A DNA stretch of 45,488 nt. Origin: Basidioascus undulatus. Taxonomy: Eukaryota. The position numbers and the translations under genes are program-made. The stretch lies in NCBI GenBank assembly GCA_000826855.1, contig JTLS01000023.1, positions 1 through 45,488 on the forward strand. The letters run 5' to 3'. Position 1 is the stretch's first letter; every line of letters begins with the position of its first letter. Under the pieces are notes generated by a model. The model was not told the DNA's origin. It worked only from the letters and a program-made list of their open reading frames with translations, and did no database searches. Shown here piece after piece: positions 4,806-6,713 of the stretch.

Positions 4806-6713
4806 TTAGACGGTGCCGACGACCTCGCCGTCGACGACCTGGTACTTGTCGAGGAACTTGATCGCCTCGTGGGCAGCCTTGATGCCCGAGCCGAACATTC
4901 CGCCTGTTGCACCAAAATATGAGCTTGAGACAGAGTAGCGACTTAAAACTTGGAAAGCTGGCGTACCGAACGAGGCACCCATGCGCGGCGCGCCGTCGAG
5001 CTCCGAGAGCTCCATGCCGCCGACAATGAGCTGTAGAGAGATAACGTAGATGCAAGTTCAGCAAATGTTCTAAGGAGGGACAGAGGGGACGCACGCCAGG
5101 GAAGACCTCGCGGGTCTGGTTAACGATCATGTCCCTGCGGTTCCGAGCATCAGCATCGGTTGAGCATTCTTCGAAACAGCGCATTGGTTACGCACTCCGA
5201 GCGGCTCATGTCAAGGGCGCGCATGTCGCCGAGGTCGGCGAGCCCAGCGGAAGCGAGACGCTTGACCGAGAAGGCGCCTGAAAGAGAGGGTAAAATGCTG
5301 GTCAGCTCGAAGGAAACAGATGTGAGGGTCGAAGTCAGAGAGAGTGCACCGAAGGGGCCATCGTGGCCGCAGAACGAGATCGTGAGCGGGGCCGTAATCG
5401 TGTTCGGGTCCATGCAGCTCTGCGTGTCGTCTGCAGCGAAGACAAGGGTCAATCAGAGGTCCTAACCCGCCGGCAGCGGACGAACGGTTAAGAGTGACGA
5501 GCGTCCAGTTGCTGACGACGCCCGAAACGCGCTGCTGGCCGTCGTGGCCGACCTTGATGATCTGTTTACGAAATACAAGAGTCAAATGGTGCCTCAAGTA
5601 ACAATCGCAGAAACCAAGACTTACGAGGTCCTCACACTAGAGCGTAGCCCGGAGTCAGCGTATCCACCCAGACGGTAAGATAAACTCTCCATGTGCTAGC
5701 GTCGCACGCATTATCGTGAACCGCTGAACCGTATAATCTCAGCCACGTCCCCGTCCTCCCAATAGGAGAAAGGGGCGAGCACCGGTGCACAGGGAGAGGC
5801 GGGCGGGGCCTCCGTGAGAGGCCCGCCTCTTGCGCCAGAAAAGAAAAGCGTTACCAGTAGCATAGCGAGAGGAGAGATGCGTTGGGCTGGAAGCCGAGCT
5901 GCGGCAGTGTCTACGTACGGCCGTCGCGTTGAAGAGCTTCACGTTCGGGAGCGCGAGGACCTTCGAGAGGATAGTCGAGGTGAAGAGGGCGGCGTGCTTG
6001 ACTGAAATGGTGAAGGACAGCAGCATTAGCTTCGGCCTCAGGGTTTACAGAGCATCACATTGTACCGCACCGACGACGTAGTTGCCCTCGTCCTCGAAAG
6101 GAATGCCGACCTTCTCGAGGAACTTGTGCGCGGGCTTGCGGACGACCATGGCGCTGAGGAGCTGACCACCGAGCCAGGCACCACCGCCGGGCGAGACGGA
6201 CGCCTCGAGAATAGTGATCTTGAGGTCCGGACGCTCCGTCGCTGTGCGTTGCAGAAACCCGATTGAATGTATATCCACGCTTTGAAAACATGTAAGACGA
6301 GACATACCGAGTTGGTAAGCGCACGAGAGGCCAGCAGAACCCGCGCCTACAGAATGTCAATAGATCGTGTGAGGACTCATTTCAAATATCAGCAGAACAC
6401 GACCAGGAAGCACGCACCGATAATGAGAACGTCGCTGACGGCACGCTCGTACATGTCCTTGAAGTAGCGGGTGCTCATGGCACGGCTCGTCTCATACTCC
6501 TTGATGGGCGCAAACTACATAGAAGAGAAACCCATGAAGTCCCGCCAATCCGGAAAAGTACAAAGATGATGGACATACCTTGTAGTTGCCCTCGTAGTCC
6601 TCAACGCCAGCCTCGCCGACCTTGGGGCGCGCGGCCTGCTGCGCCTTGATGTCGAGGGCCGACGGGGTCTTGAGCTCGACGGGAGCGGGGGCGGTAGCAG
6701 CGGAAGGAGACAT
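4806..6713 (-). CDS. THI4: Thiamine thiazole synthase (multi-exon)
   Basis: Spliced motifs [79 protein letters not shown] (sulfur-donor Cys present), [29 protein letters not shown] at 6713, TAA at 4806. Confidence 0.97.
5692..5791 (-). promoter_or_regulatory. TPP (THI-box) riboswitch aptamer in the 282-nt coding-region intron (5637-5918) of THI4
   Basis: Sense strand reads UGUGC-ACCG-GUGC-[P3 hairpin]-GCUGAGAUUAUA-CGGU-UC-AGCG-GUU-CACG-AUAAUG-CGUG-CGA-CGCU-A-GCACA. P1 to P5 all pair, with the UGAGA pyrimidine-binding motif and the AUAAUG L5 loop. It lies in a thiamine-biosynthesis gene. Confidence 0.92.

Follow-up and report, generated by a model that had tools for sequence, protein, structure and literature searches.

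The window that we analyzed, a stretch of 45,488 nt from the Basidioascus undulatus genome, carries on its minus strand a gene for the thiazole synthase THI4 (4806..6713). The gene runs from an ATG at 6713 to a stop codon at 4806, and our splice model joins its 12 exons at GT...AG introns into an open frame of 325 codons. Three of the exons, searched as unspliced references, match the Pfam family Thi4 (PF01946) at 78.5, 28.1, and 29.6 bits (E = 5.9e-22, 1.4e-06, and 5.2e-07, respectively; cut-off 26.2 bits). Elsewhere in the window, also on the minus strand, the ORF 10959-11666 contains a phospholipase D active-site motif (PF00614, E = 2.7e-05), and nine other ORFs of 219-354 codons, searched in unspliced form, gave no Pfam match.

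Intron 5 of THI4 (5637..5918, minus strand; GTACGT...TAG) is the only oversized one among the 11 introns of the gene, with 282 nt vs. 55-72 nt in the remaining 10; the original prediction had put the excess at about fivefold, and it amounts to 4 to 5 times. Exons 1-5 total 525 nt, which places the intron between codons 175 and 176 of the main ORF, directly after exon 5 (5919..6001, minus strand; PF01946 E = 1.4e-06), whose product ends in ...LFNATA at codon 175. The productive donor, S1 (gcc|GTACGT, 5913..5918), scores 9.6 in a leave-one-out profile of the donors of the gene, and a reading-frame test of the splicing choices obtains the full-length THI4 frame from the 5918 junction only, confirming the donor originally named as productive. 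Toward the 3' end of the intron lies a branch-point-like CTGAC (5654..5658, minus strand), whose A is 18 nt from the 3' splice site and 27 nt past the P1 helix described below.

Intron 5 is followed by a micro-exon of only 12 nt (exon 6; 5625..5636, minus strand), encoding CEDL, and then by intron 6 (5562..5624, minus strand; 63 nt, GTAAGT...CAG). The micro-exon is required because it maintains the conserved stretch ...NATACEDLIIK... (NAT-x-x-EDL-I), which runs uninterrupted through related ORF fragments (NATAVEDLI...); its skipping would mean the in-frame loss of four conserved residues. In another organism, a fragment of a THI4 ORF (P0008) ends in ...FNATAVR, as expected from a GTNCGN donor after the same NATA codon, and judging from this fragment the intron position after the NATA codon may be shared beyond the B. 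undulatus genome.

Within intron 5 we identified a thiamine pyrophosphate (TPP) aptamer that extends from P1 to P1' over 5685..5798 on the minus strand, as delimited by the minimum free energy (MFE) fold, a consensus descriptor, Rfam, and a parse of the P4-P5 arm. P1 pairs 5798-5793 and 5791-5787 with 5696-5692 and 5690-5685 (CUCUCC.UGUGC with GCACA.GGAGAG); the span 5692-5791, for which a complete aptamer had been claimed, corresponds exactly to the inner P1 helix (UGUGC...GCACA), and the outer part of P1 extends it to 5798-5685. P2 is formed by ACCG (5786-5783) and CGGU (5731-5728), and P3 is a 39-nt hairpin (5780-5742) closed by GC...GC. The J3/2 segment (5737..5742; UGAGAUUAUA) is the CUGAGA pyrimidine pocket; GGCUGAGA, which ends at 5737, presents this pocket closed by the GC...GC at the base of P3. 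The pyrophosphate arm is complete (GCG-G-UU-CACG-AUAAUG-CGUG-CG-A-CGC) and forms 7/7 pairs: 3/3 in P4, where (A)GCG at 5725-5722 meets CGC(U) at 5701-5698, and 4/4 in P5, where CACG at 5718-5715 meets CGUG at 5708-5705 across the L5 loop AUAAUG (5714-5709). The G of J4/5 and that of the CG in J5/4 are 18 nt apart, as counted on the sequence; both this spacing and the UAAU loop are described as conserved features of TPP aptamers (PMC5882874).

Folded alone, the 121 nt from 5800 to 5680 adopt the TPP three-way junction with P1-P5 as their unconstrained MFE structure (-51.2 kcal/mol), with a stability that 0/200 shuffled sequences equal (z = -3.2). We also derived a descriptor from the Rfam consensus line, leaving P3 length and helix sequences free; it finds one site on both strands of the 45,488-nt window (5786-5699, minus strand) and 0 sites in 400 first-order-Markov random windows. 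The site thus singled out lies within a thiamine synthesis gene, THI4 (PF01946). We consider it very likely, judging from these sequence features, that the aptamer of intron 5 is real and divergent, with TPP as its predicted ligand. In the fold with the aptamer enforced, a strong GC-rich hairpin (5802..5827, minus strand) stands between P1 and a candidate second donor at 5854 (S2); the same hairpin is the source of spurious plus-strand matches to miRNA families in the permissive Rfam search.

The check proposed along with the original prediction, a search with the Rfam covariance model of the TPP class (RF00059), came out negative at the gathering score, with no match in the whole 45,488-nt window. 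With permissive filters applied to 5550-6000 (451 nt), the model matches 5765-5679 on the THI4 strand at 13.7 bits vs. a gathering score of 54.3, with E = 4.9 across 4227 families (arithmetically, about 1e-3 for one pre-named family), in an alignment that omits the P3 region and mis-pairs P2. We calibrated this score on metagenome contigs, in which a scan with a conserved-core motif, itself partly derived from the window, gave 19 loci, 11 of which were taken as one per distinct sequence type. Only two of these 11 eukaryotic TPP aptamers (L018 and L003) reach the gathering score, and three (L006, L009, and L012) fail to attain an E of 0.01; even L001, L002, and L016, which lie directly upstream of a THI4 coding sequence (tblastn), score 33-37 bits. 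Since 9/11 are missed at that threshold, the 13.7 bits do not refute the aptamer, and the lack of a significant covariance-model hit, which had been named as a refutation, is not a valid one for fungi. A sub-threshold Rfam score does not exclude the intron 5 aptamer from the TPP class; an equivalent point, based on P3 variability, is made in PMC11683625.

The same metagenome loci place the P4-P5 arm among other aptamers. P4 (3/3) and P5 (4/4) are fully paired in all 20 aptamers, that is, the 19 loci plus the window, through four types of P4 and four types of P5, in a scan whose motif left all of P4 and both inner pairs of P5 free and fixed the outer P5 pair and the loop. The P4 (GCG/CGC) and P5 (CACG/CGUG) of the window are found in no other member of this set. 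Six of the 19 loci (L001, L002, L004, L011, L013, and L016) adjoin THI4 according to tblastn, and in each of them the aptamer precedes the coding sequence and has a canonical P4 (CUU/AAG). L006 (1-1310, plus strand) is a metagenome contig of 72% GC with an intron-less NMT1/THI5-like ORF ending near 1190 and, directly after it, an aptamer at about 1205-1310 with P4 GCU/AGC and P5 CGCG/CGCG, in a 3'-UTR layout as in algae. The conserved-core scan returned no orthologue of intron 5 among the 19 loci. A second search, with the read-through ORF 6026-5742 (95 codons) against a protein collection, gave 42 matches among 53 candidates, and all 10 of those examined matched the exon-5 part only, with a tail resembling intron 5 in none. 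Neither search recovered an orthologous intron from which covariation in P1-P3 could be computed.

The closest relative that we find is a published one, the TPP riboswitch predicted in THI4 of Rhodotorula mucilaginosa (PEFX01000025.1:388347-388461), which was identified with fungal-specific covariance models and is entered as "INTRON, Type III" in the supplement of PMC11683625; in that survey of 156 species, it is reported as the only THI4 switch from Basidiomycota. Both it and the window element are intronic aptamers of a basidiomycete THI4. Compared by eye, against this one published sequence without its flanks, the two have in common P2 (ACCG/CGGU), GGCUGAGA, the L5 loop AUAAUG, the G...CG spacing, a non-canonical P4 that starts with GC, and a long P3. 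In R. mucilaginosa, P4 is GCU/AGC and P5 is CGUG/CACG, vs. CACG/CGUG for P5 in the window, so that one P4 pair and two P5 pairs have changed on both sides in a compensatory manner; P1 is wholly different and P3 is different, with pairing kept. On their sequences, the two aptamers fit a lineage-specific variant.

The position of the aptamer inside the coding sequence determines what follows if splicing at 5918 fails. The candidate S2 donor (ctg|GTAACG, 5849..5854, minus strand), taken from the reading-frame and donor-profile analysis, would retain 64 nt and shift the frame, which then reads ...ATV before a TGA at codon 198, two codons past the junction; on this arithmetic the original prediction is borne out by translation. 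Retention of the whole intron would bring in, as its first in-frame stop, the UGA within CUGAGA (codon 235). Frame-0 stops occur at intron nt 178, 262, and 280 and none within the first 64 nt. Because the first of them lies inside an invariant motif, conservation of the aptamer guarantees a stop in any unspliced RNA. All other GTs of intron 5 likewise lead to a premature stop in the reading-frame test. Three of these lie inside the aptamer (5707 GTGCGA, 5782 GTGCTC, and 5790 GTGCAC), and we rejected them as regulated cryptic donors, as their exposure at low TPP would have the wrong logic. The truncated products all end ahead of a ten-residue motif in exon 8, which we take to be the site of the catalytic cysteine of suicide-type Thi4.

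Folding in the full context (5940-5615) suggests a competitor for the aptamer. Here the MFE structure is a non-aptamer fold (-121.0 kcal/mol) and the aptamer-enforced fold is close to it (-119.1 kcal/mol). In the former, a CUCUCC segment (5871..5876, minus strand), which is a copy of the outer 5' strand of P1 and a candidate anti-P1 competitor ("alpha"), pairs with GGAGAG, and GCUA pairs with UAGC. Enforcing the aptamer raises the predicted unpaired probability of CUCUCC from 0.13 to 0.87, and the predicted accessibility of the 5918 donor is nearly equal in both ensembles.

We propose, with a probability of about 0.75, that intron 5 is a eukaryotic TPP riboswitch that couples the level of thiamine pyrophosphate to productive splicing of THI4; regulated unproductive splicing of this gene is well supported, by analogy and by anatomy. 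At low TPP, a competitor lying upstream, the strongest candidate being CUCUCC (5876-5871), would hold the 3' strand of P1, and intron 5 would be removed from donor 5918 to acceptor 5637 to give the full-length enzyme. At high TPP, the aptamer would close P1 and productive 5918-5637 splicing would fall, the RNA being either spliced from 5854 or left unspliced. Either unproductive RNA would end before the exon-8 motif and would be an expected target of nonsense-mediated decay (NMD). The freeing of CUCUCC when the aptamer is enforced resembles the competitor logic of Neurospora crassa NCU01977 and NMT1. The sequence observations behind the original prediction all hold; of its reading that TPP switches splicing from within the coding sequence, the aptamer in a coding intron and the premature stop upon failure at 5918 are retained; 5854 as the regulated donor is not established.

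Which unproductive RNA would prevail has two equally good answers, each of which we hold as a serious but tentative possibility. One is that TPP moves donor choice from 5918 to 5854, with the 5854-5637 junction as the main unproductive product. The site is situated upstream of the aptamer and downstream of the productive donor, like S2 of N. crassa NMT1 and of the published "Type III" class, and its use brings a stop just two codons past the junction; in the full-context MFE structure, moreover, the UACUG|GU that holds it pairs with ACCGGUG, the 5' strand of P2. Positions -1 to +4 (G|GUAA) fit the general consensus complementary to U1. Against this, 5854 lacks the G at +5 that is present in 10/11 THI4 donors, and scores -1.3 in the leave-one-out profile, which 81/111 GTs of the gene equal or exceed, on a profile that is built from 11 sites only and under-rates the real intron 6 donor GTAAGT (-0.3). 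Enforcing the aptamer leaves the predicted unpaired probability of 5854 at 0.40, and the duplex energy computed for 5880-5850 against the aptamer strands is not above chance, being matched by 186/2000 dinucleotide shuffles and equalled by 91/305 natural 31-mers of the same gene, for which reason we dropped complementarity of P4/P5 or P1' to the 5854 region as evidence of mechanism. The absence of an in-frame stop between S1 and S2 also runs contrary to the published Type III definition. The other answer needs no second donor: with TPP bound to the aptamer, intron 5 would simply be spliced poorly, and RNA that retains it, with its stop at codon 235, would be the main unproductive product. This is the pattern reported for Candida parapsilosis DUR31, where the main effect of thiamine was an increase in unspliced RNA and use of the second donor was seen with and without thiamine (PMC5997356). 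The first in-frame stop of a retained intron 5 falls in the invariant motif of the aptamer, and the adjoining downstream micro-exon may render the splicing of intron 5 fragile; on the other hand, the accessibility predictions barely shift between the two ensembles, whether at the branch point (0.21 vs. 0.22) or at the 3' splice site (0.49 vs. 0.40).

More elaborate and, in our view, rather unlikely is that the element belongs to a lineage-specific THI4 riboswitch of basidiomycete yeasts, Rhodotorula included, with a rebuilt GC-rich P4-P5 arm that is invisible to generic models and a location in mid-gene beside a 12-nt micro-exon. One upstream segment would here mimic both the 5' strand of P1 (CUCUCC) and the 3' strand of P2 (UACUGGU, with the 5854 donor), and TPP would free this decoy and expose a frameshifting donor in one step. 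At the opposite extreme, the element could be an inactive relic or a chance look-alike in a long intron with no regulatory role. The low Rfam score and a P4 that deviates from the near-invariant consensus CCU/AGG point that way; we nevertheless consider this very improbable, as the pocket motifs and helices are all intact, the descriptor is absent from the random windows, and such switches are known from two thiamine-synthesis genes, of which THI4 is one (PMC5882874). Kindred P2 and P4 variants in the R. mucilaginosa THI4 intron, and P4 GCU/AGC in L006, argue likewise against a relic.

The riboswitch that we propose resembles several described systems. The original prediction cited as background the classical mode in 5'-UTR introns, which was incomplete, as coding-intron switches had already been demonstrated for NCU01977 and DUR31 (PMC5997356). 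The N. crassa NMT1 and THI4 switches share with intron 5 the ligand, the THI4 family, and a 5' splice site choice (Cheah et al. 2007; PMC5997356), but lie in 5'-UTR introns and act through uORFs (PMC5997356), whereas the intron here falls at codon 175/176 and yields a premature stop in the main ORF; in intron 5 we see no evident complementarity between P4-P5 and the second donor, the duplex test being at chance level. NCU01977, like THI4 here, has its aptamer in an intron of the coding sequence, with functional protein from the first donor only (PMC5997356, PMC5882874). In the absence of TPP, the 3' strand of P1 is bound there by a segment close to this donor, a long-distance interaction that is experimentally supported (Li and Breaker 2013; PMC5997356, PMC5882874). 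CUCUCC/GGAGAG could act in the same manner in intron 5, as a predicted pairing that is no better than chance. NCU01977 is, however, a transporter gene with an intron of 602 bp (PMC5997356), vs. 282 nt in THI4 here, and introns of its class, Type II, are given as 650-900 nt (supplement of PMC5882874), longer than intron 5. In C. parapsilosis DUR31, a TPP aptamer and two donors belong to an intron of 351 bp that interrupts the coding sequence and gives rise to a premature stop, and a reporter demonstrated that splicing of this intron depends on thiamine (Donovan et al. 2018, PMC5997356). DUR31 is a transporter gene of an ascomycete yeast and its stop lies between its two donors (PMC5997356), unlike that of THI4 here.

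Intron 5 also resembles the "Type III" arrangement, which Mukherjee et al. (2018, PMC5882874) predicted for THI4 and NMT1 introns of numerous ascomycetes and oomycetes and in which the aptamer lies in an internal intron of 200-400 nt (here 282 nt, intron 5 of 11), donors lie upstream of the aptamer and the acceptor just before the next exon, and high TPP leads to a premature stop. Two donors upstream of the aptamer are required by this definition; here S1 is clear and the sole positional candidate for S2, 5854, is weak. The definition also has an in-frame stop between S1 and S2, whereas there is none in the 64 nt here and a frameshift supplies the stop. The authors of the class state that this mode was "not experimentally observed" for biosynthesis genes (PMC5882874), and in the final portion of their Dataset S1 none of the 25 Basidiomycota rows (23 species) is for THI4.

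Control by TPP from a coding intron is thus already known, and the departures of intron 5 from Type III (in the stop) and from Type II (in the length) are details: it adds a further example of a known mechanism. It would be the second basidiomycete THI4 riboswitch beside that of R. mucilaginosa, the sole one in the survey of 156 species (PMC11683625), and the failure of the Rfam threshold both here and on 9/11 eukaryotic aptamers illustrates concretely why such elements escape detection. If the doubtful lineage-specific decoy reading were true, no coding-intron riboswitch of a thiamine biosynthesis gene would have been defined mechanistically before this one. The compact intron of 282 nt and its distinguishable outcomes (productive, +64 nt, and retained) would make it a convenient test case for Type III. 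THI4 intron 5 opens no new principle.
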